Shown piece by piece: positions 22,773-42,337 of a stretch of 64,000 nt of DNA. A program made the translations under genes and the position numbers. The notes beneath the pieces are model-generated. The model saw only the letters and a program-made list of their open reading frames with translations. It had not been told where the DNA came from and ran no database searches. Source of the DNA: a plasmid. Numbering within the stretch: position 1 is the first letter of the stretch; each line of letters begins with the position of its first letter. Where the stretch lies: sequence record NZ_CP118102.1. One strand, written 5' to 3'.

Positions 22773-22805
22773 AGAAATCTGTACTTGAGTTTATATAAAT
22801 AGCAG

Positions 22806-22834
22806 GAGCTGCCAAAAAGGCAGCTTTTTTGCTC
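22806..22834 (+). terminator. rho-independent terminator
   Basis: Hairpin AGCTGCCaaaaagGCAGCT followed by TTTTTT. Confidence 0.65.
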
Positions 22835-22964
22835 TATAAAGAAACTCTCCTATCAGATGCTTCAATAGAAAGTCAAAATATGAAGGTGTCTATCTTCCGA
22901 GATAGTTTCCTTTCAAGATATGTTAAGTATAATGTTTAATATACATAGATGATGGAGGCTTTTC

Positions 22965-23678: not shown

Positions 23679-23736
23679 TATCATACGGTCGAGTGTTTCT
23701 TGTACTCAGCACATGGGACTTTGGTCAAAGGAACAA

Positions 23737-23900
23737 TTACGAGCCTTCATTAAAGAGAATAATGAGGTCACGGCCAAAATGACGCCAAACACCCGCAACA
23801 GCAAAAGCAAAAAGATAGTCGTCAGTGAGTATGGCGAGCAAGAGATTACCATGCCTAGGGATCGGATGAGCGAATTCGAGCCCATTGTCGTGCAGAACTG
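23737..23900 (+). pseudogene. IS256-family transposase remnant (internal fragment only)
   Basis: TPNTRNSKSKKIVVSEYGEQEITMPRDRMSEFEPIVV matches the conserved IS256 Tnp region (...SYGEIELDIPRDRNGEFEPQVV). The flanking sequence is unrelated, and the ORF is only 133 aa. Confidence 0.6.
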
Positions 23901-24054
23901 GGCCAGATGCTACTCCAACTGTCTGTCTTTTTTCCAGAACGGGTGGGCAATCATTTACGTTAAGTCGCCAAATCCCCCTCGGGGGATTTCCTTGTCATTC
24001 TTGACAGACCCATACTTTAAACTATCTGCATACCCAATAAAACATATTTAAAAA

Positions 24055-24097
24055 ATAGAAAGAAGCAGCCAGTTACGACAGCTTCTTTCTATTTTTA
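24055..24097. terminator. bidirectional rho-independent terminator
   Basis: Hairpin AGAAAGAAGCagccagttacgacaGCTTCTTTCT, flanked by A-run and T-run. Confidence 0.7.
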
Positions 24098-24098
24098 G

Positions 24099-24347
24099 CT
24101 ACTGCTTAATATTTTTTAACTGCTTTTGTAAATCAAAATCCTCTGGCTTAGGAAGGTAAGCCCACTTCTCTCCATTTTGAATCCATTCTTTTAGATAACC
24201 CTCGTAGGTATATCCTTGATCATCATCGTGAAAACCAAACTCAAATCCACAACATGGGCAAACGATAAATGTTTTATATCCATATTCATCGATAGGGGGT
24301 TCTTCCAATTCGTTGTATCCACATACAAGACAAATAAAAGTTTTCAT
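24099..24347 (-). CDS. small CxxC...CxxC zinc-ribbon protein; putative immunity protein for the upstream Rhs toxin
   Basis: 82 aa, with Cys pairs CLVCG and CPCCG. It lies immediately downstream of the Rhs1 stop on the same strand. Confidence 0.45.
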   Translation of the reverse strand: MKTFICLVCGYNELEEPPIDEYGYKTFIVCPCCGFEFGFHDDDQGYTYEGYLKEWIQNGEKWAYLPKPEDFDLQKQLKNIKQ

Positions 24348-24365
24348 ATTAATCTCCTGATTTTA

Positions 24366-27300
24366 TTATTGATTTCTCCAATACTTCATCCCAGCTTTAG
24401 GTTTGTAATATGTTCTTATGTGACCTTTTCTATCTAATACTCCGAATTCATTTGTTTTTGGATTGTAATAGAGTCGATCTCCATTTGCTCTTGATTTCTT
24501 TAATACGTTCCGGCCATTTTTTGCTTTGAAGAATTTGTTAGCTTTTGTTGAGTATGCCCCTAAACTAAGTTTTTTAGCACCAAATTCATTCAAGTGGTGT
24601 TTATGAGCATTAGCAAATTTCATATTTCTAAAATTATAGTTCTTAGATTTAGATTTAGAAACTCTTCGAGCTGTGTAAGTAGCCTGTTTCGCTAATTTTT
24701 TTGGAGCTTGTTTCTTTAAATAATACTTCACTCCAATTTTAACTAATATAAATGTTACTTGAATTATAGAAAAGGGATTATCGCCATCATGGTCAACCAA
24801 ATTCACTGGATTATTATCACTATATGAATATTTATTCTGGTTAATTGGTGAAGCACTATCTCCAGAATGTGAATCCATAGTTAGGAACACAGCTAGATCT
24901 GGATCATAATATCTCGCTGATAACAGATATAAACCAGTTTCATCATCATAGCGATATCCTGCGTAACGATAAGGGTTAACATCAGCAAGTTCACCACTTT
25001 GGGATATTATATTTCCCCAAGCATCGTAATCATAAGAAGCAACTATGTTTCCTGAATTATCAGTTAAACTGACTACGTCCCCGTGACCATTTAAGTGATA
25101 GTAATATGTTTGTCCTTCAAATATAAATGCAACTGGTACGTCACTTTCATCCCATATATATTCAATTACTATATTCCCGGATTCATCAGTTTCGTAGATA
25201 ACTTTATCATCTTGGTAGAAATAGTTGCGTTTTTTATTTTTCGTCTCAGTACTGATACGTTTTCCATTATTATCATATCTAGCACTAAATATAGTAACAT
25301 TATCAGTGTCCTTAATTTCCGTTAACTGATCAAAAACGTTATAAACATATACGTTTTGATTATCTTTAACTAAGTTACCATTCCGATCATACTCAAAAGC
25401 GGTACCATTAAATGTACTAATTTGATTAACTTTATTAAAAGTTAACTCATTGGTGGTAACATCGGAACCCTTTGTTACTTTTTTAGTATCTCGATTACCC
25501 GTGAAATCATACGAATACTCAATTTTAGTACCATCAGTCAACGTTTCTGAAATCAACTGACTAAGGTTGTTATACTCGTATTCAACAGTTCCAGTGGAAG
25601 CAGTTACTGACTTAATCAGATTATTTTGGTCATAGGTATAATTGTATTCGTTGATGGCTGTTCCATCAGAACGATAATTTGCATAACCAGTTAAATTTTT
25701 AGCTTTATCATATTCAGTTTTTGTTGTTGCCCCATTACCTAGAGTAATATTTTTGAGGTCATCAGCGGTGTCATAACCATAGCTAATAATTTTAGTATTA
25801 TTGAAATACAGATCTGTGAGTCTATCAAACTCATCGTAATTATAGTTAATTACGGAGTCAATAGCATTAACAGAGTACGTTAGAGACTTAACTTCCCCAT
25901 TTTCAAAATATAGATATTTTTTTGAACTTCCTCTATCTATTTCTGAATCAATAGAACCACTATCCGTGTACTTAATAACTTTTTCGTCATCGTTAATGGT
26001 TTCCAAATTTCCATTCGGATCATATGTGTATGAGTAGAGAACATTGTCATTTTCTTTGGTGGCAACCAATTGATTCAATTCGTTATAAACATAGGTAAAA
26101 ATCCTGCCATTCGGAGTCTTAGTTTCAATAAGATTACCATTAGAATCATATTTATTATTTGTAGTGTTGCCCAAGGCATCTGTAGACGATAAGATCTGCC
26201 CAGTTCCATTGTAAGTATTTACCTCAACACTACCATTTGGATATGTTGTTCTTAAAAGGTTACGATTATTATCGTAGTCATACGTAGTAACCTGTTTGTT
26301 TGCATCAGTAACTTTTACAAGTTCATTTTGTTGATTATATTCATAATAACTCGTATTTCCCTTACCATCAGTTTTGCTTAATTCATTCCCTTGTTTATCT
26401 GTTACCGATATTGTAATATTTCCATTCCCATCGGTTGTAGTTAATACTTCATTCCCAACTGCATTGTAAGAGTATGAATCCATAGATCCATCGGGTTTAT
26501 CAACAGTTTTTAAGTTTCCATATTGATCATAGGTATGCTTTGTTACCTGACCTTTTGAATCAGTAATGGTATCAACTTTACCCTTATCATTATAAGCATA
26601 GGTTATAACATTCCCACTTGGATCTGTTTCTGTAGAAACAAAATTTAAAGAATTATACGTGTATTTTGTTGTTCGATTTTCTTCATCAGTCTTCTCAAGA
26701 ACATTACCGTATGAATCATATTTTTGAATATATTTCTTGCCGGTAGAATCAATAAATATCTCTGGATTATAGTTTGTATCATATTCAACCTGTTCTTCTG
26801 TTCCGTCTGCATAAACAATTGATGTAGGGGTATAATTGCTATCCATGTGATACTCAGTTACATTACCTAGAGCATCCGCAACATAAGAGGTTCTTCCAGC
26901 AAATTGATAGCTTTTTCCCGGTCGTTCTAAACCATCTACACCAGAAACGTCTGTCGATGGCTCCTGAACTTTAGCAACATATTCATTCTCATAAGTAAAG
27001 TCTGTCCTGCGGTTATTAGGATCAATAACTGTAGTAAGGTAACCTTCTGGGCTGTAACCATATTTTGTTCGGTTATAAGTTCCGTCAGTAGAATACTGAT
27101 CCACCGAAACAAGTCTTTTATTAATATCGTAATTGTAATCTGTTTTTTGTCCTTCTAACATCGCATAGTCAACTAAACCACTCGTTGTATAAGTGAATAC
27201 TAGTTCTCTACCCGTAGCATCGACTATACCAGTTAACTTTCCATCTGTTGAATATTTGTATTCAAGTTTATTTCCATATAGATCCTGTTCATAGCTTATT

Positions 27301-29237
27301 CTTGCAGTCACTACACTAAGTTCGTTATCTATATTTACAGTATCAAAATGAGTAATATATCCATTTTTATCAGTAATGGTATATCCTGTTGTTCCTTTGT
27401 TTTGATCCGTTACTTTTGTTAACGTTAGGTATTTACCTGGTGGAGAAATATACTTCTTTGTAGATTGGTCATATTTGAAATAATGAGATGTTCCATCAGG
27501 TTCTGTATAAAGAACATTCCCTGTTTTATAAGCATCATAGATGCTTTCGTACCCGTTATAAACCCATCCATATCCAAAAGGTGTTAATTCTACTGATTTA
27601 GAATTATATGTTCTACCAAATACTAGAGCAGTATCCCCCCGTGAATCTAGATTATAATCTGTATACTGAATAACGTTATTACCAGTGCCCAAGTTGACGT
27701 TGCTAGTTCCTTCTCCCAAACTAATGCCATCAAAAGTCCAATAATCTTCCAATCCTAGACGACTTGCTGAAGTGTAGGTCACACTAAGAAGAGGAGTATT
27801 TTTTGTGTTAGCGGTATCATCACCGGAAATAAATTTTTTATAGGTATTTGTGGTTTCAGATGAACTTTTGAGTAAAAAACCTAAATTCGAATCGGGATTA
27901 TTAATCCACTTTTCCATCATGTACGGTGTGAGAGACCACTTATAATTGACATCCAAAGATGTAAGAGTATCTACATATGCAGTAGAAACTTGGGAGGCAT
28001 TAAAATCTCCGCCTTGAGAATTCCACTGTGTCCCGGCATCAGAGTACATCCATGAAGCTGAATATTCTGTCCATGGTGTGCTTATTGAATGCAAGGTTAC
28101 ATTCATACCAGTGTCATTAGATACTGAAGCCAACCATAAATTTAAATCAGCTGTTAAAACATTTGCTCCTTGAGGAATTGAACTAGTATCAAATCTAATT
28201 AATGAACGAATAATATTATCTTGGGTAGCGTCTTTGTATAAACCTACCCCTAAGGTTGTTTCTGTTGGTGCTGTCTGTTTTGGGAATGCACTTCGAATGT
28301 TTGTATCAGAAAGTGCATATTGGGGCTGATATTTAACTATTGTAGGATCTAAAGTTACTGGATAGACCCTCTTGTCACTGAGCAACCATTCCTGATTGGG
28401 GATCAGGTCTATATACAACTGATTATTTTCAGATCTCAAATCGTACTTAATATCATATGATATAGCTTCTTCTGGTATAGTAGATATTTCTTCGTTCTCT
28501 TTGTATCCATTAGGTTTAAACGAATCATACATAATAGGTGCTTCAATATAATACTTTATATCACCTGACTCTTTATCTAATAAAAGGATTGAGCCATTCT
28601 CTCGTTGCTTGTATGTTAAATTACCTAAATCTAATGAGAAGGTATAGATAACCGGTGTTTCCAGGTTAGCAGGTTTATCTTTTAAAATTATCTCCTCTTT
28701 AATACGATCGTTACCCAAGGAATATTTTAGATCCGCATTCTCAAAAACTTCTGGATAGATTACAGTATTGTTGGAAACTTCCGCATCTATGGCAGTTTCT
28801 ATTTCGGAGTAAGTAGTATTAGTAACCAATTCCTCCTTCATTGGAGTTAAATTTATCTCATAGTTATTTTCTGAAATTTCAAGTAGGTTGTCTTCGGAAG
28901 TGTGTTGTTTATCTAGCTTTACATGAAAAGAGTGGGCGTTATTGTAAATAGATGTATTATTCTCTTTAAGAGTTGGTTTCCATTTCTCTATGTTTTCATC
29001 AAAGTAATGGATCGGTGTTGGAGAGATATCCGTTGTTAATGTACCATTGCTGTTTAGGTATGTTTTTGAATATTCACTTCGTTTTCCTATTAATTCCTGC
29101 CTTTCATTTTTGATATTTACGACATCAGATGTCTTGTTATCTTTAACTTCTGCTATCGCTTTTGGATTAATTGCTGTTGAGGTCAATAATGAACCTGCCA
29201 TTACAAGAATAATGGACTTTTGAAATAACCTATTCAT
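24366..29237 (-). CDS. WapA/Rhs-family YD-repeat polymorphic toxin (1623 aa). It has a signal peptide, a DNRLRE-like N-terminal domain, YD repeats, an Rhs core ending DHDGDNP, and a lysine-rich C-terminal toxin of unknown type.
   Basis: Signal MNRLFQKSIILVMAGSLLTSTAINPKAIA. The GNDRIKEEIILKDKP motif is a DNRLRE variant. Many YD repeats (YDxxGN...). Core motifs YYYHLNGHGDV, DYDAWGN, and PxxLVDHDGDNP replacing the usual DPxGL. The last ~140 aa are basic, with ANAHKHHL. Confidence 0.85.
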   Translation of the reverse strand: MNRLFQKSIILVMAGSLLTSTAINPKAIAEVKDNKTSDVVNIKNERQELIGKRSEYSKTYLNSNGTLTTDISPTPIHYFDENIEKWKPTLKENNTSIYNNAHSFHVKLDKQHTSEDNLLEISENNYEINLTPMKEELVTNTTYSEIETAIDAEVSNNTVIYPEVFENADLKYSLGNDRIKEEIILKDKPANLETPVIYTFSLDLGNLTYKQRENGSILLLDKESGDIKYYIEAPIMYDSFKPNGYKENEEISTIPEEAISYDIKYDLRSENNQLYIDLIPNQEWLLSDKRVYPVTLDPTIVKYQPQYALSDTNIRSAFPKQTAPTETTLGVGLYKDATQDNIIRSLIRFDTSSIPQGANVLTADLNLWLASVSNDTGMNVTLHSISTPWTEYSASWMYSDAGTQWNSQGGDFNASQVSTAYVDTLTSLDVNYKWSLTPYMMEKWINNPDSNLGFLLKSSSETTNTYKKFISGDDTANTKNTPLLSVTYTSASRLGLEDYWTFDGISLGEGTSNVNLGTGNNVIQYTDYNLDSRGDTALVFGRTYNSKSVELTPFGYGWVYNGYESIYDAYKTGNVLYTEPDGTSHYFKYDQSTKKYISPPGKYLTLTKVTDQNKGTTGYTITDKNGYITHFDTVNIDNELSVVTARISYEQDLYGNKLEYKYSTDGKLTGIVDATGRELVFTYTTSGLVDYAMLEGQKTDYNYDINKRLVSVDQYSTDGTYNRTKYGYSPEGYLTTVIDPNNRRTDFTYENEYVAKVQEPSTDVSGVDGLERPGKSYQFAGRTSYVADALGNVTEYHMDSNYTPTSIVYADGTEEQVEYDTNYNPEIFIDSTGKKYIQKYDSYGNVLEKTDEENRTTKYTYNSLNFVSTETDPSGNVITYAYNDKGKVDTITDSKGQVTKHTYDQYGNLKTVDKPDGSMDSYSYNAVGNEVLTTTDGNGNITISVTDKQGNELSKTDGKGNTSYYEYNQQNELVKVTDANKQVTTYDYDNNRNLLRTTYPNGSVEVNTYNGTGQILSSTDALGNTTNNKYDSNGNLIETKTPNGRIFTYVYNELNQLVATKENDNVLYSYTYDPNGNLETINDDEKVIKYTDSGSIDSEIDRGSSKKYLYFENGEVKSLTYSVNAIDSVINYNYDEFDRLTDLYFNNTKIISYGYDTADDLKNITLGNGATTKTEYDKAKNLTGYANYRSDGTAINEYNYTYDQNNLIKSVTASTGTVEYEYNNLSQLISETLTDGTKIEYSYDFTGNRDTKKVTKGSDVTTNELTFNKVNQISTFNGTAFEYDRNGNLVKDNQNVYVYNVFDQLTEIKDTDNVTIFSARYDNNGKRISTETKNKKRNYFYQDDKVIYETDESGNIVIEYIWDESDVPVAFIFEGQTYYYHLNGHGDVVSLTDNSGNIVASYDYDAWGNIISQSGELADVNPYRYAGYRYDDETGLYLLSARYYDPDLAVFLTMDSHSGDSASPINQNKYSYSDNNPVNLVDHDGDNPFSIIQVTFILVKIGVKYYLKKQAPKKLAKQATYTARRVSKSKSKNYNFRNMKFANAHKHHLNEFGAKKLSLGAYSTKANKFFKAKNGRNVLKKSRANGDRLYYNPKTNEFGVLDRKGHIRTYYKPKAGMKYWRNQ

Positions 29238-29706
29238 TTTTCATCTCCTAATTAAAATTATCTCTTCTTCAGAAATATACCAATGAAAGTTATAACTATC
29301 TGAGAAGAAATTGGTAAGCAAAAATCATTATTACAAAAACAAATTTCGATAGCAATGAACAAAAAATACCAAGTGGAAGCTTAACAAAAATCAACCGAAT
29401 TACCACCGCTATTATCTTGCTATTCAAATAGTAATGCACCAATTGCATAGTGTAGGTCATCGTGAGAAACCCAGTAAATATATCCCAAATTATGAAGAGT
29501 CGTGTTTACAACACTTTTGTCCCACTTTATAATAATGTTATTAAGATTTTTGTATTTTTCTTTGCCGCTAATTTTCGGTAAAGACGGTGAACGCTTCTTT
29601 TAAGCTAATAAATATTGGATTGAAATAGGAAGGCTATAAAGCATACGCACTATACGTATGTCTTTGTACGCCTTCTTTTTTTATGTCCAAATAGGAGGAG
29701 ATAGAG

Positions 29707-29994
29707 ATGAGCAATTTGCAAACCGTCATTGAAGACGACGGAATGAAGATGCTTAGAGTATACAGAGCTGGGCAATTGATACTCTGTTTACCTGAAGTAA
29801 ATCGAATTGCGACATTAGAAAATCAGATTAATACGGAAACTTTCGATACGATCGAGGAAGTAGTGGCGTTTATCGGAAGTAGAGAGCAGTGTTGTAGCAG
29901 ATCTTACTCACTGCATCTGATCTTGAGAGCATATGAGTTCGTTAACGAACACTACATCAAGCTTTATTACTACATTCATTCTTCGGGATGTTAG
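29707..29994 (+). CDS. hypothetical small protein (95 aa)
   Basis: GGAGGAG RBS. Overlaps the start of the next gene. Confidence 0.35.
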   Translation: MSNLQTVIEDDGMKMLRVYRAGQLILCLPEVNRIATLENQINTETFDTIEEVVAFIGSREQCCSRSYSLHLILRAYEFVNEHYIKLYYYIHSSGC

Positions 29995-31883
29995 CAGAGG
30001 GGGATATAAACATGGAAACTTATGAATTAGTCGAAAACACAACAAAGATTGGGATTCAAAATCGGCTGAAGGACTATAACTCTGTGATCTTAGATACCTG
30101 GGATTACCTTGAAGCTGTTGGTTTTTCATTTCATGGGGTCGTTCGAGACTGGACTGCAATTTTTGAGAAGGGTGTATACTTTGCAATCCATCATTTCGTT
30201 AAAGATCGACCCGATTTGGATTGTTTAGCACCGGATAGCGGCTTTTCATGGAAGGATTTATTTCAAGGCGATTCTGTCTCAGGAGCGCTTTTTTTGTTTC
30301 TGGAAAAATCAGGATTTAATTTATGGATGCCTGAACAGGCAGCTATAGACGCTTTGGTTGCTACTACAGTGACGGATGACTCTTACATGTTTGGCAGAAA
30401 CAATTATCCTTCCATGAGTGATTGGAGCTACACGAGTCCAAAGCACAAATTCCAGGTCTACGGATTCCATCGATCCTGCGCTGTACTTATTGAAATTTAC
30501 GCGCTCAATATTCCTCCTTATGGTGCGAGTAAAGACCAGCTACCGTTTCCAGAGGATCGCTGCCAGCCATCTTTCGATATATTTGATCTGGCAACCGGCG
30601 CTTCGCAAAAGCGTACACAGCGAGCGATCGCGGGGGAAACTTTGGATTTCCTTGAGAAAGTAGATGATGAACTATTAGCTGTAACAAGAGCCAAGATCAA
30701 GAAGATCTATGATGAGCACTCTATCATCGGATTATTAAATTCCGGTGGTGTTGATTCAAGGCTTACGCTGCAGCTGATGATAGAGCATGCAATAAAGAAC
30801 CCCGATCCGTCTAAAGGAATCATGGTCATATCAGCTGATACGTTAGTGGAGAACCCAGGCGTTAAACAAATTATTCATGAGCTTCGAGATGCTTTAGGCA
30901 GGGCTTTTCCATGGATTGAGTATCACATCGTTGAACCACGAGAGGATAATACCCTGCTCGTATGCATCATCGGTAAGGGATACCAAGCCCCTTCCGTCTC
31001 CTTCAAATACTGTGTTCGTCGTCTTAAGATTGAGCCGGCGAGAGAGTTCCTTGAGGCAATGTTTTTGGCTGAAGGAGCTGAAGACACGGTGCTGGTGCTT
31101 GGTTCGAGAGACAATGAGAGTGTAATGAGAAAACGCAGCCTTTCGAAGCATTTTGGTGAAGACTTTTATGGGCATCATCCTGTAGGCAATATTCGTACAG
31201 CCTCACCTATTCGAGATTGGACGAAGCAGGAAGTCGTCACGTATTTAGCGTTCAACCGGGGACCATGGAAGAAGGGAGCTCGTAATACAGAGCTTCTAGC
31301 CTTTTATGGCAATGCAGCCGGCAGTGAGTGTCCTCTTGGTGCTGCCGTTGTTAATGACAATGAAGCCATGATGCAGTGCGGTAAGTCGGCAAGAATGGGC
31401 TGTTACCTGTGCACCATATCTCAAGACAAGAGTATGGGAAATCTGATCTCCACTCATCCGGAGTACGAAAAATATTACAAATTCCGTAGAATCCTTAAAG
31501 CGATCGGTCAGGATATTCGATATGGAGGTATCACTGGGGTTCAAAGGATAGGTAAGTCTAAAATCGGAAGTGGTATCGGAGATCTAACGATAGATTGTCG
31601 AACACATCTCCTGCAGACGATGGCCAGACTCGATATTGAGTGGCGCAAGAGTGAGATTATCACCGCGTACCAAATGGTATTAGAACGAGAAATGGTTGAG
31701 GGATTCCCAGTAACGGAGAGGTTCCGTGATGCAATATTTCAGTTGATCGCTGTATCTGGTTCTATGAAGAATTTCTTTGGTCACTCTGTATTCGATCCAT
31801 ACGGAACAGGAGTTGACCAAGTTACAGAGGAAGACAACGAAGCTATAAAGAGAATACTTGAAAAGAGAAGAAATATGATCTGA
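29988..31883 (+). CDS. PP-loop ATP-pyrophosphatase superfamily protein of the PAPS-reductase/DndC-like type, with an unusual ~240-aa N-terminal extension
   Basis: PP-loop LLNSGGVDSRLTL at about residue 245. The C-terminal Cys cluster ECPLGA...QCGKSARMGCYLCT resembles the Fe-S/Zn-binding Cys cluster expected in DndC/SspD-like or QueC-like proteins (resemblance is from memory). Confidence 0.6.
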   Translation: MLAEGDINMETYELVENTTKIGIQNRLKDYNSVILDTWDYLEAVGFSFHGVVRDWTAIFEKGVYFAIHHFVKDRPDLDCLAPDSGFSWKDLFQGDSVSGALFLFLEKSGFNLWMPEQAAIDALVATTVTDDSYMFGRNNYPSMSDWSYTSPKHKFQVYGFHRSCAVLIEIYALNIPPYGASKDQLPFPEDRCQPSFDIFDLATGASQKRTQRAIAGETLDFLEKVDDELLAVTRAKIKKIYDEHSIIGLLNSGGVDSRLTLQLMIEHAIKNPDPSKGIMVISADTLVENPGVKQIIHELRDALGRAFPWIEYHIVEPREDNTLLVCIIGKGYQAPSVSFKYCVRRLKIEPAREFLEAMFLAEGAEDTVLVLGSRDNESVMRKRSLSKHFGEDFYGHHPVGNIRTASPIRDWTKQEVVTYLAFNRGPWKKGARNTELLAFYGNAAGSECPLGAAVVNDNEAMMQCGKSARMGCYLCTISQDKSMGNLISTHPEYEKYYKFRRILKAIGQDIRYGGITGVQRIGKSKIGSGIGDLTIDCRTHLLQTMARLDIEWRKSEIITAYQMVLEREMVEGFPVTERFRDAIFQLIAVSGSMKNFFGHSVFDPYGTGVDQVTEEDNEAIKRILEKRRNMI

Positions 31884-31977
31884 TGGGTACATGTATGTGT
31901 CTATCGCTTGTTCAGCGTCCTGGCGGACGGTAATAAAAACACCTCCGCCTTGCGCGGAGGAGCATGGAGGTAAAAAT

Positions 31978-33720
31978 ATGTCCCAACAATCAGTTATGTC
32001 ACTGTTTGATTACTTTATGTTTGAGCAGGATTATCAGGTGGTTGACCAACACGAGATTTTCTTTAATCCACCGGCAGCGGTAGTTGCGTCTAGTAGTTCC
32101 GGCAATAGCAAACAATTTGCTTACGACTGTGGTGAGGAATTACGGGGTGCACGAAAGCATCTTGCATCTGGCCTGGTAAAGTTCTCATCGGAGTGGCAGA
32201 CAGCTATGGAAGTCGATCCTAGCCAGGCATATGATTTAGTCTGTAAAGATGGGTTAATCGGCTCACTGAATGCTGAGAATTTACAAGAAGAGGGTTATAC
32301 TTCTGAGGCTGCTCTAGTTGTGAAACTAATCTGGGACCGTGTAAGTCAACGACCAGCCGATGATTCAGTTCAAAGAAGATATTTCATACAAGCTGTGAAT
32401 GAACTGAGATCCTTATTTAGAGACGCGAAAACAGTGGATTCTGTTAAATCTGCAGTCTCAGAGCTGCGGATTAATGTTCGTAATGCCCATTACTCGCAAT
32501 CCGAGTACCAGGTGAAAAAGAATCCGGAACTGTTGTCCTACTCGCATTGGCTGTCACTAGGAGATCGATTCAAATCTCTTTTTGTTACCAAGTCACGGGC
32601 AGTGGCAGGATACCGCAAGATATATAAGAGAGCTTTTGAATCAGAGGAAGGACAGGATTGGAATTGGGCAAAGAAACGAAGGAATCAAAGTAACCGACGA
32701 CAGTCAAATAAAGCCTACTGGGAGCGTAAAGTACCTGATGAGGTAATCCGCTTATCAGAGAAAGCATCCGGAGTTACGAAGCCTGAGGACTTTATTACTC
32801 AATACGGTTTTCGTGGAATTCAGTTCGGTAATTGGGTGGATGATGCTGCAGGAAGATACCACGTACTTTGTTCTGGGAATGCTTGGGCAGATCTAGCTTC
32901 TATTTTGAAGCTTCCTCCAAAAGCGATCTCATTCTATGGTGCTCTTGGGCTTGCCTTTGGAGCAAGAGGGAGTGGTAAAGCAGCAGCACATTTTGAGGTT
33001 TCTACCAACGTAATGAATTTGACCAAGCATCGCGGAGGAGGATCCCAGTGCCATGAATGGGCTCATGCGCTTGATCAAAATCTGTATTCATACTCCCATC
33101 AATTCTCGAACGGTAAGCGTGCCTTATTGTCCGGTTCTGAGGCAGGACCTCATCTTCCTGCAGAGTTAAAAGAAGCCTTCGCTGATCTAATGAAGGTGAT
33201 TAAAGAAGGTAATGGCAAGCGACTAGTGAAAGTTCCTGATCCGCTCCCGCTTCCCCAGAGTCGTTATTACGACAGAATTAAAGGGGCATTGGCGTTAAAT
33301 AATTACGATATAAGTACTGCATTACAGTCCTTGATTGGCCGATATCGTATAAAGAATAATCAATGGATGGATATTGCCATTTTATATTGTAATCTGCTAA
33401 AGGAAGCAGGGAAGGAAGTACCAAAGAGCTTCTACATTCCCTCTGATGAAAGCCTATTTTATTCCGATGCTAAAAACATGGGGGCATACTGGCGTCGTGA
33501 CCATGAGCTCTTTGCAAGAGCATTTGAATCATGGATTGAAGATGAATTGTCAGCGGCTGGTATGACTAACTCGTATTTAGTATATGGAACACAGTTTGGT
33601 AGTCCTTACCCGTATGGTGAGGAGAGGCAATTCATTAATGCTTCTTTCCGCAAATGGTGGGAAATCATGCTGCAGCTAGAACTCTTCACAAATGAACGTT
33701 TCTGGCAGAATGCGAATTGA
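31978..33720 (+). CDS. hypothetical protein with an HExxH (zincin-like) motif; partner of the PAPS-reductase-like gene
   Basis: ATG at 31978 with a GGAGG RBS. The motif GGGSQCHEWAHALD lies at about residue 360. Confidence 0.45.
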   Translation: MSQQSVMSLFDYFMFEQDYQVVDQHEIFFNPPAAVVASSSSGNSKQFAYDCGEELRGARKHLASGLVKFSSEWQTAMEVDPSQAYDLVCKDGLIGSLNAENLQEEGYTSEAALVVKLIWDRVSQRPADDSVQRRYFIQAVNELRSLFRDAKTVDSVKSAVSELRINVRNAHYSQSEYQVKKNPELLSYSHWLSLGDRFKSLFVTKSRAVAGYRKIYKRAFESEEGQDWNWAKKRRNQSNRRQSNKAYWERKVPDEVIRLSEKASGVTKPEDFITQYGFRGIQFGNWVDDAAGRYHVLCSGNAWADLASILKLPPKAISFYGALGLAFGARGSGKAAAHFEVSTNVMNLTKHRGGGSQCHEWAHALDQNLYSYSHQFSNGKRALLSGSEAGPHLPAELKEAFADLMKVIKEGNGKRLVKVPDPLPLPQSRYYDRIKGALALNNYDISTALQSLIGRYRIKNNQWMDIAILYCNLLKEAGKEVPKSFYIPSDESLFYSDAKNMGAYWRRDHELFARAFESWIEDELSAAGMTNSYLVYGTQFGSPYPYGEERQFINASFRKWWEIMLQLELFTNERFWQNAN

Positions 33721-33746
33721 TAACTCACAAAATGGGGGGATCCGGA

Positions 33747-33920
33747 ATGGCTAAAACCTTGAAAGAGTTACTGAGGGATATAGAGAGGAAACGCGAGTGT
33801 TTAAATAGAGCTGAGAAGCGACTAGGGATTAAGTCAAAATATGTTCTTAAAAAATCCCAGGAGCTTGATGCTTTACTGAATGAATATGCAGCTAGAACCA
33901 TAGCTTGTATGGAGAAATAA
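33747..33920 (+). CDS. Spo0E-family aspartyl-phosphate phosphatase-like small protein
   Basis: LKELLRDIERKRECL...SQELDALLNEY is the Spo0E signature. Confidence 0.6.
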   Translation: MAKTLKELLRDIERKRECLNRAEKRLGIKSKYVLKKSQELDALLNEYAARTIACMEK

Positions 33921-33975
33921 ATCACACTGGTATTTAATATGTAAACATGAATTTATTAGTAATATTCACTTAATA

Positions 33976-34022
33976 AAAACAGTTAAATCCTTGAATTCGA
34001 AGGTTTTAACTGTTTTTATTTG
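33976..34022 (+). terminator. rho-independent terminator
   Basis: Hairpin AACAGTTAAA...TTTAACTGTT followed by TTTTATTT. Confidence 0.6.
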
Positions 34023-34159
34023 GAAAATTCTATTAATTGTAAACTCCATATTTTTCATATATTATTCTAATATATTACCTGAATTTTCATCTAAAGTTAT
34101 TCCTTTCTTTGGTCAAATTTAACTTAGATGTGATTCAAAAAACACCGAGGAGCTGACAC

Positions 34160-37100
34160 ATGAAAAAGAATTTCAAAAGTATGATATCGCTTACAATTGC
34201 CAGCGCATTGTTAACGACCACAATCTTGAGTCCCGATGTCATCGCATTATCCAATGAAAACAAAAGTACTGATACTGGAGGGTCTTTAATCGCACCAGAC
34301 GAACCAAAAAGAATTGAGGTTGCTACAGAGAGAGATGAATACTCGAAAACATACTTAAACAGTGATGGATCGTATACAACAGATATTTCACCGATTCCTA
34401 TTCATTACTACGATGAGACCATAAAGAAATGGATGCCTATTAAGAATGAGCTTAAAAAAGAAGCGAACAAGATTGTTTCAGATGAACACCCATTAAGTGT
34501 TGACTTACAGAGCACTTTCTCCGCGACCAATCAACTACTACAGATCTCCGAAGATGAGTACGAAATCAACTTAAGCCCAGTCGAAGAAGAGTTATCTGCT
34601 ACCGCCGAGGAAACACCTGCAGAGGTAGATCAAAATGAAGTGGTGTATCCGGAAATATTTGAAAACGCAGATCTAAAGTACACCCTTGGCAATGACCGTA
34701 TTAAAGAAGAAATCATTTTGAAAGAGCGTCCAGCAAACTTAGATAATCCAGTAATCTACAGTTTCTCACTAGATCTCGGTAATCTGACCTATAAAGAGCA
34801 AGAGAACGGTTCCATTCTGCTGGTAGATAAAGAGTCAGGGGAAACTCAATATTATATTGAAGCTCCTATGATGTTTGATTCATTCCGGCCTGATGGATAT
34901 AAAGAAGTATCGGGAGTAAACAGCATTCCAGAGGAAGCAATATCCTATGATATTCATTATGATGTCCGCTCCGAAAATAATCAGCTTTACTTGGATCTTG
35001 TTCCAAATCAAGAATGGTTGCTTGATCAGGAGCGTGAATATCCTGTAACTCTGGACCCAACAATCGTAAAGTTCCAGCCTCAATATGCTGTAACTGATAC
35101 GAACATTAGAAGCGAGTTCCCTAAACAAACCGCTCCAACGGAAACTACCCTTGGTGTAGGTCTTTATAAAAGTTCAACTCAAAACAATGTCATTCGATCC
35201 TTGTTGAAATTTAATGTAAGTTCTATACCTCAGGGCGTGGATATCATAACCGCAGATTTAAACTTATGGTTAGCTGCTGTGTCCAATGATACTAATATGA
35301 ATGTTTCATTACATGCCATAAATACTCCTTGGACGGAGTACTCTGCATCTTGGATGTATGCCGATGCAGGCAAGCTTTGGTCGACACAAGGAGGAGATTT
35401 TAACGCTTCTCAAGTTACTACCGTTCCTGTGGGGGCGTTAACACCGCTTGACGTCAATTACAAATGGTCGTTAACACCTTACATGGTTGAGAAATGGATC
35501 AATCAGCCTGACTCCAATATCGGTTTTCTATTAAAGAGTACGTCAGAAACAACGAATACGTATAAAAAATTCATATCTGGTGATGACACGGTTAACACAG
35601 AATATACTCCACTTTTAAGTGTTACCTATACTTCGGCTAGTCGACTGGGTTTAGAAGACTACTGGACCTTCGATAGCGTAGCTTTAAATTCCGGAGTAAA
35701 TTATACAAATTTAGGGACAGGAAATAATATTCTTGAATACAACGACTTTTCTCTAACTGGAAGAGGAGATGTTAAGCTCGAATTTACAAGGACGTATAAT
35801 TCCAAATCGAAAGAAGCATCTCCATTTGGATATGGATGGTCAAACAGCGGGTCAGAGACCCTGATTGATGCTCATAAAACAGGTAGGGTCTTTTATACAG
35901 AAGCCGATGGCACTACACATTATTTTGAGTACGATTCTAGCAAAGGAACATATAGTTCACCGCCTGGGAAGTATTTGAATCTTAGTCAACAAAGAAATGA
36001 TCAAGGTGCTGTCACGGGATATGTTATAACAGATAAATATGGCTATCGAACCTACTTTGAGGCACTAGAGAGTGATTCGGAAGTAAGTATCATAAAAGCT
36101 CGAATCAGTTATGAAGAAGATTTAAATGATAACCGATTAACTTATAATTATGATGATCAAGGAAGATTAAGAAGTATTGTTGATCCTTCAGGAAGGATTT
36201 TGGAATTTACTTATAATGCTCAGGGTATGGTGGATTCTGCTATTGTCGAAGGAGAAATTACAAAATATTCATACGATTCAAACAAGCGTTTGGAGAACGT
36301 GGATTATTATGAAACTATCGATACATTTGAAAGAACCAATTTCCAGTACAATGACAAAGGACTAATTTGGAAAGTTACTGATCCAAATGGCGGAATTTCA
36401 GAATTCACCTATGTTGGTGAGGATGTAATTGAAACGGTTAAGGAACCTTACAAGGATTCAACAAGTGTAACAACCTATGCTATTGATACAAAAAATCACA
36501 AAGCAATTGTTACAGATTCTAAAGGGAATATAGAAAATTATTTTCTTAATGCAGAGTATGCAGTGAAATCAATAACTGATGCTAAAGGACAAACAACTTC
36601 TACTACGTATGATGAGAATCTTAATCCTCTTTTGAAAACGGATGCCAAAGGGAATGTACATGAACTGCAGTATGATGAGAAAGGCAATGTCCTAAAAGAA
36701 ATTGATGGAGCAGGAAATGTAAAATCCTATACCTACAATAATCTTGGACGTGTTCTCACAGAGACCGATGAGAGAGGAAACAGAATAACTAACATCTATT
36801 ACCCCAATGGAAGAGATTTAAAATCGGTAACTGATGCTAAGAATCAAGTTACTTCTTATAACTATGACGATTATGGAAATTTAATTGAATCTATACTACC
36901 TGATGGTACCAAAGAAACTTATGAATATGATGCAGCAAATAATTACATTGAAAAATCTATCGATCCAAAGGGAAATACGACAGTTGAAATAACAGATTCA
37001 GTAGGAAACATCATAAACAAAACTGATGGCGAAGGAAATGCCACACAATTTAAATACAATAAACTCAACCAATTGACGAAAGTAATAGAGCCTGACGGAA

Positions 37101-39328
37101 GCACCACTTCCTACGATTATGATGATCTAGGGAATATAAACAAAGCAACGTATCCCAATGGAGAAACAAGGGACTATAAATACAACAAATCTGGAAACTT
37201 AGAGAATACAACTGATTCACTTGGTAACCAATATCAATATGATTACGATACAAACGGAAACCTTACTAAAATAATTACACCAAACAGAGATACAATCGTT
37301 CACGAGTATAATGAATTGAATTTACTTGTTCATACAAGAGTGAATAACGAACTCCTCTTCTCCTACCATTATGATGTAAATCTTAATCTCGAGACTGTGA
37401 ATGGAAATAAGGTCTACAACTATGATCAAAATAATGCAATCTCAAATATTAAGGATAGAGGTTCTGATATTCAAATTGGATATTACGAGAATGGCCTTCT
37501 TAAATCACTGGAGTATTCAAACGGAGCTGCTGAAACAAAAATTGAATACGGTTTAGACAATGTTGATCAGTTAACCGAGTTGAAAGTTAATGGACAAGTA
37601 ATTGCTACTTATGAATATAACAAAGCTGGTTATGAGGTAGCGGGAACAAGAGGTAACAAGACTACAGCAAAAATCGATTATGATTTGTCAAAAAATGTTA
37701 CTTTGCATCGTAATTTAAAGTCAGATGACTCCATCATCAGTGAGTACCAATACAGCTATGATAAAAACAACCGAATTGTAGGAATTAATTCTCCTAGAGG
37801 GGAGATTGTTTATACTTATGATAATAAGGACCAGCTTATTCAGGAAGAGCTTGCAGATGGGACATTTATCAAGTATGACTACGATAAAGTTGGTAATCGT
37901 ACTTTAAAAGAAATTCATAAAGGAACAGAAATTGAAAGTATAGTATCTTTGTTTAACAGCGCAAACCAATTAAATACTGTGAATAATAAGAAATATAATT
38001 ATGATAGTAATGGTAATCTTATTGAGAATGAAGAATATCAATATGTTTATAATAAGTTAGACCAACTTATTGAAGTAAAAAGTAAGGAAAGCAATACCAC
38101 CATCTTTAAGGCTAGTTACAATGAAGATGGTAAACGAATTCGTACAGAGAACAGTCAAGGTGTCCGCAATTATTATTATAATGGTGACGATCTTGTTCAA
38201 TACGAGACAGACGATCAAGGAAATGTCATTATTGAATATTTCTATGATTCAAATAAAAAGTTAGTTGGGTTTAATTTTGATGAGGCAAGATACTATTACC
38301 ATTCAGATGGGCAAGGAAATATTGTAAATATTACGGATTCAAATGAGAACATTGTTGCTAGCTACGAATACGATGCTTGGGGGAATGTACTTAGTTCAGA
38401 AGGAGATTTAGCGAATATTAATCCTTACCGTTACAAAGAGTATCGATATGATTCAGAACTAAAATTATATTATTTAAATGCTAGATATTATGACGCAAAT
38501 ACAGCTACATTTCTTGCAAAAGATCCTATGCCAGGCTCAGCTTTTGAACCAACTACACAAAATGGATACAACTACGTAGGTAATAACCCGGTCAAATTTG
38601 TTGATCCTTCCGGAGAACTTAGGTGGATATTTAAATTAGGCCAGTGGATATATAAAGCAATTAAATCATCTGGCAAAAAAACTCCCAAAGCTGTTAAGGG
38701 GTGTAACTGTTTTGTAGCAGGTACCAAGGTTCTTACAGAAAACGGAGAGAAGAATATTGAAGACATTGAAGTCGGTGATAAGGTCCTCGCTAAAGACGAA
38801 TACAATGCAGAAGGAGATTTGGCCTACAAGGAAGTAACAGGTCTATACCAAAACCAGCGTGACGATATCATTAAATTGCACGTTGGAAAACAAATCATAG
38901 AAACAACAGACAACCATCCATTTTGGGTTGAAGACAAAGGCTGGATTTTTGCAGATGAACTTCAAGTAGGAGACAAACTACAAAAAGCAGATGGAAGCAA
39001 CCTTGTAATAGATAAAGTAGAATTTTTGAAACTTGGAAAACCAGTTACCGTATACAACTTTACGGTTGCTGATTACCATACGTATTATGTAACGGATCTT
39101 GGAATCTGGGTCCATAACACTAAATGTGGGCTTGATATTAAAAAATTGGATGATAAATATTTAAAAAAACAAAAAATTGATGCACATGACCTGAAGCGGG
39201 AATTTTTAGGTAGAAAAGCTAAGATAGCAGAATATGATCTCTATTCAAATAAGAAAACTGGTGAAATAATGATCTTTAGAAAAGGAGGAAAAGGAGAAGG
39301 TATACGAACAGGACACTATATCGACTAA
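34160..39328 (+). CDS. WapA/Rhs-family YD-repeat polymorphic toxin paralog (1722 aa), with a C-terminal Hint (intein-like) autoproteolytic domain and a short ~65-aa terminal toxin module
   Basis: Signal MKKNFKSMISLTIASALLTTTILS. The N-terminal 500 aa are about 70% similar to Rhs1 (e.g. EYSKTYLNSDGSYTTDISPIPIHYYDE). YD repeats. Core DAWGN and PVKFVDPSGE. The Hint domain runs from CFVAGTKVLTENG through VGDKV and HPFW to VHNTKC. Confidence 0.85.
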   Translation: MKKNFKSMISLTIASALLTTTILSPDVIALSNENKSTDTGGSLIAPDEPKRIEVATERDEYSKTYLNSDGSYTTDISPIPIHYYDETIKKWMPIKNELKKEANKIVSDEHPLSVDLQSTFSATNQLLQISEDEYEINLSPVEEELSATAEETPAEVDQNEVVYPEIFENADLKYTLGNDRIKEEIILKERPANLDNPVIYSFSLDLGNLTYKEQENGSILLVDKESGETQYYIEAPMMFDSFRPDGYKEVSGVNSIPEEAISYDIHYDVRSENNQLYLDLVPNQEWLLDQEREYPVTLDPTIVKFQPQYAVTDTNIRSEFPKQTAPTETTLGVGLYKSSTQNNVIRSLLKFNVSSIPQGVDIITADLNLWLAAVSNDTNMNVSLHAINTPWTEYSASWMYADAGKLWSTQGGDFNASQVTTVPVGALTPLDVNYKWSLTPYMVEKWINQPDSNIGFLLKSTSETTNTYKKFISGDDTVNTEYTPLLSVTYTSASRLGLEDYWTFDSVALNSGVNYTNLGTGNNILEYNDFSLTGRGDVKLEFTRTYNSKSKEASPFGYGWSNSGSETLIDAHKTGRVFYTEADGTTHYFEYDSSKGTYSSPPGKYLNLSQQRNDQGAVTGYVITDKYGYRTYFEALESDSEVSIIKARISYEEDLNDNRLTYNYDDQGRLRSIVDPSGRILEFTYNAQGMVDSAIVEGEITKYSYDSNKRLENVDYYETIDTFERTNFQYNDKGLIWKVTDPNGGISEFTYVGEDVIETVKEPYKDSTSVTTYAIDTKNHKAIVTDSKGNIENYFLNAEYAVKSITDAKGQTTSTTYDENLNPLLKTDAKGNVHELQYDEKGNVLKEIDGAGNVKSYTYNNLGRVLTETDERGNRITNIYYPNGRDLKSVTDAKNQVTSYNYDDYGNLIESILPDGTKETYEYDAANNYIEKSIDPKGNTTVEITDSVGNIINKTDGEGNATQFKYNKLNQLTKVIEPDGSTTSYDYDDLGNINKATYPNGETRDYKYNKSGNLENTTDSLGNQYQYDYDTNGNLTKIITPNRDTIVHEYNELNLLVHTRVNNELLFSYHYDVNLNLETVNGNKVYNYDQNNAISNIKDRGSDIQIGYYENGLLKSLEYSNGAAETKIEYGLDNVDQLTELKVNGQVIATYEYNKAGYEVAGTRGNKTTAKIDYDLSKNVTLHRNLKSDDSIISEYQYSYDKNNRIVGINSPRGEIVYTYDNKDQLIQEELADGTFIKYDYDKVGNRTLKEIHKGTEIESIVSLFNSANQLNTVNNKKYNYDSNGNLIENEEYQYVYNKLDQLIEVKSKESNTTIFKASYNEDGKRIRTENSQGVRNYYYNGDDLVQYETDDQGNVIIEYFYDSNKKLVGFNFDEARYYYHSDGQGNIVNITDSNENIVASYEYDAWGNVLSSEGDLANINPYRYKEYRYDSELKLYYLNARYYDANTATFLAKDPMPGSAFEPTTQNGYNYVGNNPVKFVDPSGELRWIFKLGQWIYKAIKSSGKKTPKAVKGCNCFVAGTKVLTENGEKNIEDIEVGDKVLAKDEYNAEGDLAYKEVTGLYQNQRDDIIKLHVGKQIIETTDNHPFWVEDKGWIFADELQVGDKLQKADGSNLVIDKVEFLKLGKPVTVYNFTVADYHTYYVTDLGIWVHNTKCGLDIKKLDDKYLKKQKIDAHDLKREFLGRKAKIAEYDLYSNKKTGEIMIFRKGGKGEGIRTGHYID

Positions 39329-39357
39329 CTATTTATATATGGAGCTGAAGTGTTAAA

Positions 39358-39762
39358 ATGAACGATATAACAACTGTTATGGCTGAGTTCGCAATTATAG
39401 GTGAAAATTTTACTAAGCAGAATATAACTAACCAACTGCAAATTGAACCAACAGAATTTTACTCCAAAGGTGACAAAATAAAAAACAGAGACCTTTATAG
39501 AAAAGAAACTGCATGGAGTCTAGCTACGGAATATGAGGAGTCCTTGGATATCAATTTACAATTAAATAAGCTAATATCTATTCTGAATGACAAAAAGGAA
39601 GAATTACTCAAGTTAAAAAGGACTTATAACTTGTTTTATAAATTTTTTATTGTTATTAAAATTGAAGAAAACGAGACTCCAGCAATATATCTAGATACGA
39701 CCACAATTTCTTTCGCCAATGATTTAGGAATTGAATTTGACTTTGACCTTTATATCTTTTAA
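39358..39762 (+). CDS. putative immunity protein for Rhs2 (134 aa; possibly a DUF4279-like fold)
   Basis: Starts 30 nt after the Rhs2 stop on the same strand. No motif. Confidence 0.4.
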   Translation: MNDITTVMAEFAIIGENFTKQNITNQLQIEPTEFYSKGDKIKNRDLYRKETAWSLATEYEESLDINLQLNKLISILNDKKEELLKLKRTYNLFYKFFIVIKIEENETPAIYLDTTTISFANDLGIEFDFDLYIF

Positions 39763-39906
39763 ATCCGATAATTTGTCAAAAGCTACCCTTAAATGGGTAG
39801 CTTTTTTCAATTCAAGTTTATTTTTATATGTTAGAAGGGAACCCCCTATATTTTACATTGATAAAAGAACTAATGTTCGCATATAATACAAACAAACGTT
39901 CTTAAT

Positions 39907-40293
39907 GTGGGGTGGATAGTAATGTTGAGTATTGGGCTGAATTCAGACGATATCAAAATTGTTAAGGATTATGCTTTATTGCCGATACTACTCGATGTAC
40001 TGGAGAAGGACTGGGAGCTCCTTTGTCGGTCCGATATCAAAACCTTGGAATTGACTCGAGTGATGATTGAACGGTTACAAAATGCGGCAATGAGTGATTT
40101 GACCTCAGCTCGAAAGCTAATGCGAGAAAAGAATTTAAAGGTGTATGAGTATCGTAAGACCAATCATGGCGTTGAATTGCAGTATGTAAGCAAGGGATAC
40201 CATAGAAAGTTGTCTATGCTTTGGGGGCTGATTGAAGCAGAAATTGAGCAACGTTCATACAACTACCTTGGGTTTGAGAGAGAGCAATTATGA
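39907..40293 (+). CDS. hypothetical protein (128 aa)
   Basis: The ORF overlaps the polymerase start by 4 nt. A TTG/GTG start is possible. Confidence 0.35.
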   Translation: MGWIVMLSIGLNSDDIKIVKDYALLPILLDVLEKDWELLCRSDIKTLELTRVMIERLQNAAMSDLTSARKLMREKNLKVYEYRKTNHGVELQYVSKGYHRKLSMLWGLIEAEIEQRSYNYLGFEREQL

Positions 40294-41899: not shown

Positions 41900-41920
41900 T
41901 CTAATGAGAATTTTTTTAAA

Positions 41921-41958
41921 GATTGCTAAATAACTAACTAGCAATCTTTTTTATTTTT
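41921..41958 (+). terminator. rho-independent terminator
   Basis: Hairpin AGATTGCTAaataactaacTAGCAATCT followed by TTTTTTATTTTTT. Confidence 0.6.
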
Positions 41959-42335: not shown

Positions 42336-42337
42336 AA

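Follow-up and report, generated by a model that had tools for sequence, protein, structure and literature searches.

A solo DndC-like enzyme with a rare N-terminal domain in a conserved, leader-headed operon of Paenibacillus plasmids

Introduction

Proteins with a DndC-like core are known from modification systems, such as BrxP of type 4 BREX and SspD, and as solo enzymes carried by mobile elements. In this work, we analysed a DndC-like PP-loop protein encoded in a stretch of 64,000 nucleotides (nt), hereafter the window, from the plasmid sequence record NZ_CP118102.1, together with the small operon in which its gene lies. The window belongs to a large, apparently conjugative plasmid (megaplasmid) of Paenibacillus urinalis. 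The operon, referred to below as the cassette, comprises the following features (window positions; aa, amino acids; ORF, open reading frame; RBS, ribosome-binding site):

29505-29533, + strand: sigma-A-type promoter, TTTACA-17-TATAAT, 11 of 12 consensus matches
29555-29691, + strand: 5' leader RNA of ~135 nt with hairpins P1 and P2, a long compound terminator-like hairpin and a U7 tract, abutting the RBS
29707-29994, + strand: small ORF of 95 aa, first gene of the operon, with a strong RBS
29988-31883, + strand: DndC-like ORF, 631 aa; 623 aa from the RBS-supported start ATG 30012
30012-30695, + strand: N-terminal extension domain of the DndC-like protein, about residues 1-228, alpha/beta (from alignments)
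30696-31883, + strand: DndC-like PP-loop ATP-pyrophosphatase/Fe-S cysteine core and family-specific C-terminal helical region
31978-33720, + strand: LPD1-domain gluzincin-like metallopeptidase, 580 aa; the ORF from 31891 gives 609 aa
33747-33920, + strand: Spo0E-like aspartyl-phosphate phosphatase family gene, last of the operon (Pfam 1.9e-11)

DndC itself (TIGR03183) and the protein described here have in common the PP-loop SGGxDS, the DTLVENP motif and the full cysteine set. They differ in that the latter has a private N-terminal domain of 220 aa, a replaced C-terminal domain, no DndA/B/D/E nearby and, here, a location in the plasmid backbone. The matches to BrxP (4.9e-8, partial) and SspD (2.8e-5 over 113 of 277 model positions) in PADLOC are weak. 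A phage protein in which a PAPS reductase is fused to Dam confers anti-Dnd activity and escape from Vibrio Dnd (10.1101/2021.05.05.442762; cited in PMC13551039). This protein (Piel et al. 2022) is likewise a mobile-element-borne, partner-less DndC-like domain tied to methylases, although the methylase is fused in the phage protein and a neighbour here, in one case in a co-oriented tandem that shares a leader copy. Compared by description only, the phage protein also differs in its length (479 aa), its C-terminal Dam and the lack of an N-terminal extension. Solo 'PAPS reductase family' proteins of ~600 aa from Burkholderia, Shewanella and Rossellomorea plasmids also carry DndC-like cores on mobile elements, but their identity is 25-32% and their extensions are C-terminal, not N-terminal. 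What is new here is the rare, private N-terminal domain; solo DndC-like enzymes borne by mobile elements are already known.

The other parts of the cassette also have described relatives. LPD1 was listed as a domain of unknown function by Iyer et al. 2017 (PMC5512222), who proposed that solo LPDs near type IV secretion system (T4SS) genes facilitate early invasion. The LPD1 domain is shared with the LPD1/metallopeptidase modules of polyvalent proteins from phages and conjugative elements (PMC5512222), and the fold with anthrax-lethal-factor-like (ATLF-like) zincins such as MtfA and the Pro-Pro endopeptidases; unlike the polyvalent proteins, the one described here is a solo protein of 580 aa with its own N-terminal helical domain. 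For the leader, the nearest described counterpart is a zipper-type attenuator found in conjugation operons of the pLS20 family. The attenuator cATTpLS20, described together with ConAn antitermination (PMC13401043, PMC8191782), is also a structured, terminator-like leader that heads conjugative-plasmid operons, and the U-tract can likewise be taken into the long stem. The comparison was made by description; the present leader is ~135 nt long versus 456 nt, and it is multi-copy and heads accessory and replication operons, whereas cATTpLS20 heads the conjugation operon. Our analyses indicate that the cassette is most likely a DNA-modification and host-takeover module of the plasmid family and not a new anti-phage system.

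Results

The DndC-like protein and its N-terminal extension

The DndC-like protein most likely starts at ATG 30012, which is preceded by the RBS GAGGGGG and is identical to the RefSeq start. With this start, the 95-aa ORF (stop at 29994) does not overlap the DndC-like gene. The PP-loop motif SGGVDS occupies residues 252-257 of the 631-aa ORF, or 244-249 of the 623-aa protein (nt 30741-30758), and does not vary among 27 family members or canonical DndC, as expected of a PP-loop ATP-pyrophosphatase. The Pfam family PAPS_reduct spans residues 250-424 only, while the PADLOC DndC model matched residues 227-505 on model positions 8-288 of 481 (1.9e-50). As the DndC match starts at residue 227 and the PAPS_reduct match at residue 250, approximately 220 N-terminal residues are genuinely extra, and the last ~120 residues are also not DndC-like.

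The cysteines C334, C440 (in ECPLG), C456 (in QCGK) and C464/C467 (in GCYLCT) are conserved without exception in both the family and six canonical DndC proteins. This is the cysteine set that, judged from the alignments, would serve a [4Fe-4S] cluster or sulfur transfer. The DTLVENP motif, R461, D472 and S474 are also common to the family and DndC, with a core identity of ~37%. The catalytic residues are of the DndC type, and the protein most likely shares the chemistry of DndC. Among the other PADLOC models, PDLC03333 ('Type II methyltransferase') matched the DndC-like core with 1.2e-27, which would be consistent with PAPS-reductase/methylase fusions among the PDLC03333 members.

A preliminary description of the locus, made from the sequence, had pointed to a DndC-like PP-loop protein with a deeply placed SGGVDS motif, an N-terminal extension and a small co-oriented ORF upstream. 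All of these were confirmed, with the extension shortened from 240 to ~220 aa by the limits of the Pfam and PADLOC alignments and the proposed overlap of the small ORF removed by the start at ATG 30012. It had also likened the C-terminal cysteine cluster to both DndC/SspD and QatC and had left the choice between DndC, SspD and QueC to further comparison. The DndC set is present and the DndC models are the best matches, SspD is weak and PADLOC gave no QatC match for the DndC-like protein, so the QueC/QatC reading was dropped. A housekeeping CysH/ThiI-type enzyme with conserved metabolic neighbours, which the same description had named as the competing possibility, was dropped as well, since the DndC models fitted best and the context is that of a plasmid.

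The N-terminal domain has its own set of invariant residues: W30, H41-G42, R45, W47, H60, C71, SPKHK142-146, E161 and PYGA169-172. Its profile was compared with 1.84 billion representative sequences and matched only 30 proteins, of which the named ones come from Paenibacillus and Aneurinibacillus. All eight full-length divergent proteins with this domain (620-750 aa) carry PAPS_reduct after it. Thirteen sequences of the domain gave no Pfam match even at E = 10, and the sequence search of the Protein Data Bank (PDB) gave no match for either family profile (DndC-like or LPD1). The AlphaFold2 (AF2) model of the domain was poor.

Position of the cassette in the plasmid backbone

The cassette is identical (100%) bar one base to that of the P. 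urinalis plasmid NZ_CP118110.1, and its DNA is 76% identical to that of plasmids from P. lautus and P. sp. Cedars. In a local tblastn analysis of 20 loci, the order DndC-like, LPD1, Spo0E was found in 13 of 14 plasmids or contigs from Paenibacillaceae, namely from the genera Paenibacillus, Cohnella and Thermobacillus. Genes for Rep/DnaA-N always lie at most about 10 kb from the cassette block in these loci, and the lowest identities among them are ~60% for the DndC-like protein and ~50% for LPD1. The comparison of the cassette with phages using megablast gave no match.

The backbone of the P. provencensis plasmid (locus L011) is 97-98% identical to that of the window, and blastn aligned it in three blocks: 17383-22776, 29505-33921 and 39850-46644. 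The second block begins exactly at the cassette promoter. The two segments between the blocks, each with one Rhs locus, had no blastn alignment to P. provencensis, which has other sequence in both places (2.3 kb on the left and 1.1 kb on the right). The content of these two cargo slots in the window is as follows:

22777-29504: slot A, left of the cassette, with a 237-aa ORF, a transposase fragment, a putative immunity gene and Rhs toxin 1
23650-24051: transposase fragment at the edge of the left slot
24099-24347, - strand: putative Rhs1 immunity gene, 82 aa, weak zinc-ribbon match, downstream of Rhs1
24366-29237, - strand: Rhs/DUF6531 polymorphic toxin 1 (Pfam)
33922-39849: slot B, right of the cassette, with Rhs toxin 2 and a DUF4279 putative immunity gene
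34160-39328, + strand: Rhs/DUF6531 polymorphic toxin 2 with PT-HINT and Ntox33 (Pfam)
39358-39762, + strand: putative immunity gene, DUF4279, downstream of the Ntox33-tipped Rhs2

The Rhs genes are not present at this locus in the plasmids of P. provencensis, P. lautus and P. sp. Cedars. The near-identical P. provencensis backbone without Rhs shows that they are recent, lineage-specific cargo. In the Cedars plasmid, slot A holds a Gabija-like pair of OLD-ATPase and UvrD (L002 7921-11532, - strand). The C-terminal toxin domain of Rhs1 had no match in Pfam. Because the L011 blocks align and the Rhs segments do not, and the P. lautus and Cedars plasmids are without Rhs, the cassette is a conserved anchor between two cargo slots. 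Only a few kb separate it from the replication genes, and it is part of the conserved backbone. The preliminary description had correctly placed the cassette between two divergent Rhs loci and had taken this position for a defence hotspot, with the cassette as defence-island cargo. That argument is not supported, as the cassette occurs in all close relatives and it is the flanking slots, with their Rhs insertions, that vary.

A conjugation apparatus of the Gram-positive type is encoded upstream of the cassette on the same strand. It includes a T4 coupling protein, TcpE, a VirB4-like ATPase and a cell-wall hydrolase, together with two replication-relaxation proteins. Next come RadC, a Gabija-like pair, CoiA, XF1762, DUF6884, Dam and Dcm; PolIV/YolD and then replication genes lie downstream of the cassette. 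The backbone features concerned are:

1-5800 (NZ_CP118110.1 22000-44400): Tcp-like conjugation apparatus, including a 950-aa protein and a glucosaminidase (annotation)
12470-15754, + strand: Gabija-like pair of an OLD-family AAA_15 ATPase/TOPRIM protein and a UvrD helicase (annotation)
17852-18292, + strand: XF1762 family gene, opening the Dam/Dcm operon, with a weak Mom-family match

The first Gabija-like gene is represented by two ORFs (361 aa and 226 aa) in the window and by a single 591-aa TOPRIM protein in NZ_CP118110.1, which indicates an indel difference between the records. The match of XF1762 to the phage Mu Mom family in Pfam is weak and sub-threshold (8.6e-5; 22.7 versus 27.1 bits), and there is a further weak match to GNAT acetyltransferases. 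Given this Mom-like match, the backbone may carry three or four different DNA-modification activities.

Promoter and structured leader RNA

The -35 and -10 boxes of the cassette promoter are kept in five plasmids. The leader that follows has a minimum free energy (MFE) z-score of -5.9 to -7.0. The same architecture was obtained when nine diverged copies were folded independently (z-scores from -3.4 to -8.3). Conservation of the leader exceeds that of the coding sequence, and all 13 family loci have it, with either small ORF or none following it. A covariance model (CM) built from two near-identical copies, searched with filters off, revealed four copies in the window (E about 1e-7), all on the + strand and each with its own sigma-A-type promoter. 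Besides the copy in the cassette, these are:

5949-6080, + strand: before the DUF4258...RadC string, with its own promoter and RBS (CM 38.8 bits, E 3e-7)
17463-17597, + strand: before the XF1762 (Mom-like)-DUF6884-Dam-Dcm operon (CM 39.5 bits, E 2e-7)
53401-53542, + strand: before the DnaN-DUF6094-hypothetical-DEAD/DEAH helicase operon (CM 40.4 bits, E 1e-7)

The position upstream of the XF1762 operon is also occupied by a leader in L002, L003, L005 and L011. Elsewhere in related plasmids, copies head many operons and were found before LPD1, methylases and XF1762. Copies were located at L002 1285-1418, L003 5524-5657, L005 708-842, L006 8748-8870 and 13481-13618, L020 11534-11667 and 15909-16043, and L030 4360-4506 and 10917-11061.

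Since the P2 and terminator stems were misaligned in the MAFFT alignments, which were rejected, single-sequence folds and a covariance-model alignment were used instead. In 25 copies, 90.6% of the cells were paired, versus 41-55% with slid partners, and compensatory changes occurred in 38 of 45 pairs. The covariation score was 0.547, as opposed to ~0.09-0.10 when the partners were slid, and none of 500 shuffles reached 0.547; as the alignment was fitted to the covariance model, the pairing and covariation figures are somewhat inflated towards the structure. No credible family was found in Rfam, and the P1 pattern had no exact match in viral contigs. The leader is thus shared in multiple copies by several plasmid operons, and it is a previously uncatalogued structured RNA, being multi-copy, covarying and not in Rfam. 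From its structure and distribution, it is a candidate attenuator that would define a plasmid regulon.

The LPD1 metallopeptidase and the Spo0E-like gene

The third gene of the cassette encodes the 580-aa HExxH protein noticed in the preliminary description. Its HEWAH motif (nt 33052-33066) is invariant in 43 homologues. The LPD1 domain (PF18796) was identified at C-terminal residues 497-562 (window ~33466-33663) with 67.9-68 bits versus a gathering threshold of 27. The AF2 model of the protein was good (pLDDT 82), and the protein was shown to be an ATLF-like gluzincin/zincin with an LPD1 domain and a zincin fold. Residues 225-375 match PHROGs built from polyvalent proteins of 1000-2900 aa. 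After the HExxH helix, an invariant (D)HELFARAFE (E510, A513, R514) lies in the LPD1 stretch and was modelled with high confidence. The invariant D366 and E510 are candidates for the third zinc ligand. LPD1 may accordingly represent the C-terminal gluzincin subdomain that bears this ligand and completes the peptidase domain, instead of a separate domain.

Members of the LPD1-protein family occur on 418 plasmid records, including those of Acinetobacter, the B. cereus group, Vibrio and Xanthomonas, compared with seven for the full-length DndC-like protein. In the pXO1-like B. cereus plasmid pAH820_272, the LPD1 protein occurs with DUF3854 just upstream of T4SS genes, with no DndC-like gene, and in P. 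peoriae LPD1 and Spo0E are present and the DndC-like gene is absent. Conversely, LPD1 is absent or unrecognisable beside six of the seven distant members of the N-extended family that were examined. A possible, very divergent LPD1/HExxH gene (588 aa, L024) follows a family member with 37% identity; its likeness to LPD1, suggested by HELGH and a sub-threshold Pfam LPD1 match, is tentative, and hhalign against the LPD1 profile gave a probability of 2.9%.

The LPD1 gene is also repeatedly decayed. It is intact in the window, and in NZ_CP118110.1 K214 is replaced by a stop (window 32617); its tblastn identity in NZ_CP118105.1 is 99.8%, the same as in NZ_CP118110.1. A frameshift interrupts it in Paenibacillus sp. 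MMO-58 (L013 11921-13692), and a 170-aa remnant is left in P. ihuae (L014 11832-12341). The DndC-like gene is intact in all of these plasmids except NZ_CP118105.1, where it is split, as it is in Paenibacillus sp. MMO-177 (L016 10001-10195). The occurrence of LPD1 on ~400 other plasmids without the DndC-like gene and its repeated decay show that it is not an obligate partner; the LPD1 family is independent of the DndC-like family.

The last gene encodes a protein with the Spo0E-like domain (PF09388), identified with 44.2 bits versus a gathering threshold of 23, which agrees with the earlier observation that a Spo0E-like gene closes the cassette. In 13 loci, as in P. peoriae, the Spo0E-like gene comes after LPD1. 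In two LPD1 (PF18796) clusters, P0115 (636 aa) and P0128 (560 aa), a Spo0E-like domain (PF09388) is present at the C-terminus. Such a fusion or read-through would tie the zincin closer to Spo0E than to the DndC-like enzyme.

Small ORFs and neighbours of the N-extended family

The 95-aa ORF is kept in five plasmids with an identity of 45-94% and had no match in Pfam, PADLOC, NCBIfam or PHROG. Two apparently unrelated types of small ORF were found upstream of the DndC-like gene, neither with a family match: type 1 of 95 aa (FDTIEE...EHYI) and type 2 of ~86-112 aa (SSG.RF...YAEY.L.TPDELH). Small ORFs before the DndC-like gene are located at L005 6369-6731, L014 9681-10022, L015 9688-10026, L017 9740-10000 and L019 9505-10026. 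Paenibacillus sp. MMO-58 (L013) and MMO-177 (L016) have no small ORF at this position.

In the whole N-extended family, the commonest neighbours besides LPD1 are orphan Dam/Dcm methylases, which recur in 12 loci. A single leader copy in P. baimaensis precedes a co-oriented tandem of two Dcm genes and the DndC-like gene, and in P. sonchi an N6-MTase and a Dcm gene lie between the DndC-like gene and LPD1. The other neighbours of the divergent members are ThiF (E1-like), Prok-E2 and Phage_L5_gp82, in PRTRC-type cassettes, and a second, shorter PAPS-reductase paralogue is often found near them. A solo PAPS-reductase gene of Shewanella also adjoins ThiF/Prok-E2-type genes, and P. abyssi has two N-extended paralogues. 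Neighbours of the ThiF/E2 type are located at L022 8520-9829, L027 8795-9676 and 13727-14872, L029 1-613, L031 3705-4850 and 7005-7883, and L009 1-209. Dnd partners were not annotated in any of more than 20 related loci.

Discussion

We propose, with a probability of roughly 55%, that the cassette is one operon of a plasmid establishment and counter-restriction regulon in which the DndC-like enzyme modifies DNA or counters restriction. The conjugative-plasmid backbone around it, which holds replication genes, RadC, PolIV/YolD, a Mom-like gene and orphan methylases, points to establishment or counter-defence rather than to defence. Conjugative elements typically use RadC, Mom-like proteins, Dam, Dcm, DnaN and helicases for establishment and counter-restriction. 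The operon consists, in order, of the promoter, the structured leader, the small ORF, the N-extended DndC-like enzyme, the LPD1 zincin and the Spo0E-like gene, and it would be co-regulated with the RadC string and with the Mom-like/Dam/Dcm and DnaN/helicase operons via the same promoter-plus-leader module. By ATP-pyrophosphatase and Fe-S/persulfide chemistry, the DndC-like enzyme would introduce a sulfur-type DNA mark or otherwise interfere with modification-dependent restriction, and in either way it would, alongside the neighbouring orphan methylases, protect the plasmid in new hosts. Targeting, which canonical DndC owes to DndD/DndE, would here be the task of the N-terminal domain. The LPD1 zincin would act as an independent, solo polyvalent-type peptidase on host or plasmid proteins early after entry, and the Spo0E-like protein would damp Spo0A~P and thereby delay host sporulation. 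The three proteins would be co-expressed without necessarily forming an obligate system.

Several observations weigh against this proposal. Canonical DndC requires DndD/E and a cysteine desulfurase, none of which is nearby; neither DndA/B/D/E nor Ssp or Qat partners are annotated in the window-equivalent plasmid stretch. The same absence of all canonical partners had led the preliminary description to conclude, rightly, that this is not one of the named defence systems. The match to TIGR03183 (5.8e-50) reached 170.5 bits versus a cut-off of 290.4 and covered model positions 3-278 of 447 only. Judged by this score below the equivalog cut-off, the missing C-terminal domain and the missing DndD/E context, the protein is best placed outside DndC sensu stricto. 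The targeting role given to the N-terminal domain is a guess. The role in DNA modification is deduced from homology and neighbourhood only. Furthermore, plasmid maintenance requires neither the DndC-like nor the LPD1 gene, since some plasmids carry broken copies of them, and common descent may account for part of the synteny of the close loci, which all represent a single plasmid lineage. Finally, MOB-suite classified the window plasmid and its relatives as non-mobilizable, which makes expression early on entry a supposition.

The preliminary description had favoured a new defence system. Spelled out, this would be an anti-phage or anti-MGE (mobile genetic element) defence of two or three genes, in which the PP-loop enzyme would modify or sense and the HExxH protein would be the protease effector, carried as hotspot cargo. 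The DndC-like core does match models of defence systems, plasmids often carry such systems, and the flanking slots gather conflict cargo (Rhs here, Gabija-like in P. sp. Cedars). The pair is also adjacent in 13 of the 14 close loci, to which the divergent 588-aa gene after the 37%-identical member may be added. However, neither protein always accompanies the other: LPD1 proteins without the enzyme occur on ~400 plasmids, LPD1 is missing beside six of seven distant members, and it decays independently while the enzyme remains intact. As the cassette is backbone and not cargo, has no nuclease or other recognised restriction effector, and has neighbours of the counter-defence type (orphan methylases, Mom-like, RadC), we regard a defence role as unlikely and no longer consider the HExxH protein a specific partner.

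It is similarly doubtful that the enzyme acts on something other than DNA, in RNA/tRNA or small-molecule thiolation or in a ThiF/E2-type relay, with the operon serving as a host-physiology module. The PP-loop/Fe-S fold is indeed common to the tRNA thiolases NcsA and TtuA and to TilS, Spo0E belongs to host signalling, neither the C-terminal domain of DndC nor its DndD/E partners are present, and distant members adjoin ThiF, Prok-E2 and the second PAPS-reductase paralogue. Nevertheless, the nearest sequence relatives are DndC proteins with the full cysteine set, and the commonest neighbours are DNA methylases, once in tandem and co-oriented with the enzyme; the ThiF/E2 cassettes of the PRTRC type are themselves modules of conjugative elements. 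We consider it still less probable that the four genes are functionally unrelated, decaying passengers that are neighbours by descent only, as the common Rep/DnaA-N of the close loci and the nonsense, frameshift and truncation alleles of LPD1 and the DndC-like gene might suggest. The gene order is held down to ~50-60% protein identity despite insertions between the genes, many residues are invariant in the family, including in the N-terminal domain, the upstream leader is maintained with compensatory changes, and LPD1-Spo0E fusions exist. A bolder form of the establishment proposal is conceivable, albeit with rather low odds: the enzyme would be a self-sufficient, single-polypeptide DNA sulfur-modification enzyme whose N-terminal domain replaces DndD/DndE and which, together with the methylases and the Mom-like enzyme, lets conjugative megaplasmids pre-empt restriction. 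Its expression, like that of at least three other establishment operons, would then be under a new class of multi-copy attenuator leader that defines a plasmid-wide early regulon.

For the interpretation of similar loci, the cassette shows that a position between two toxin loci can mean a conserved anchor with cargo slots on either side, and not cargo. The LPD1 zincin occurs on hundreds of plasmids, including pXO1-like plasmids of B. cereus and those of Acinetobacter, and the operon offers a tractable context for its study, while the leader RNA offers a handle on the coordination of establishment genes in Gram-positive megaplasmids. If the enzyme does modify DNA without DndA/D/E, it would be the simplest phosphorothioation-type machinery known, and conjugative plasmids of spore-forming bacteria from soil and the clinic would have a counter-restriction strategy not described before.

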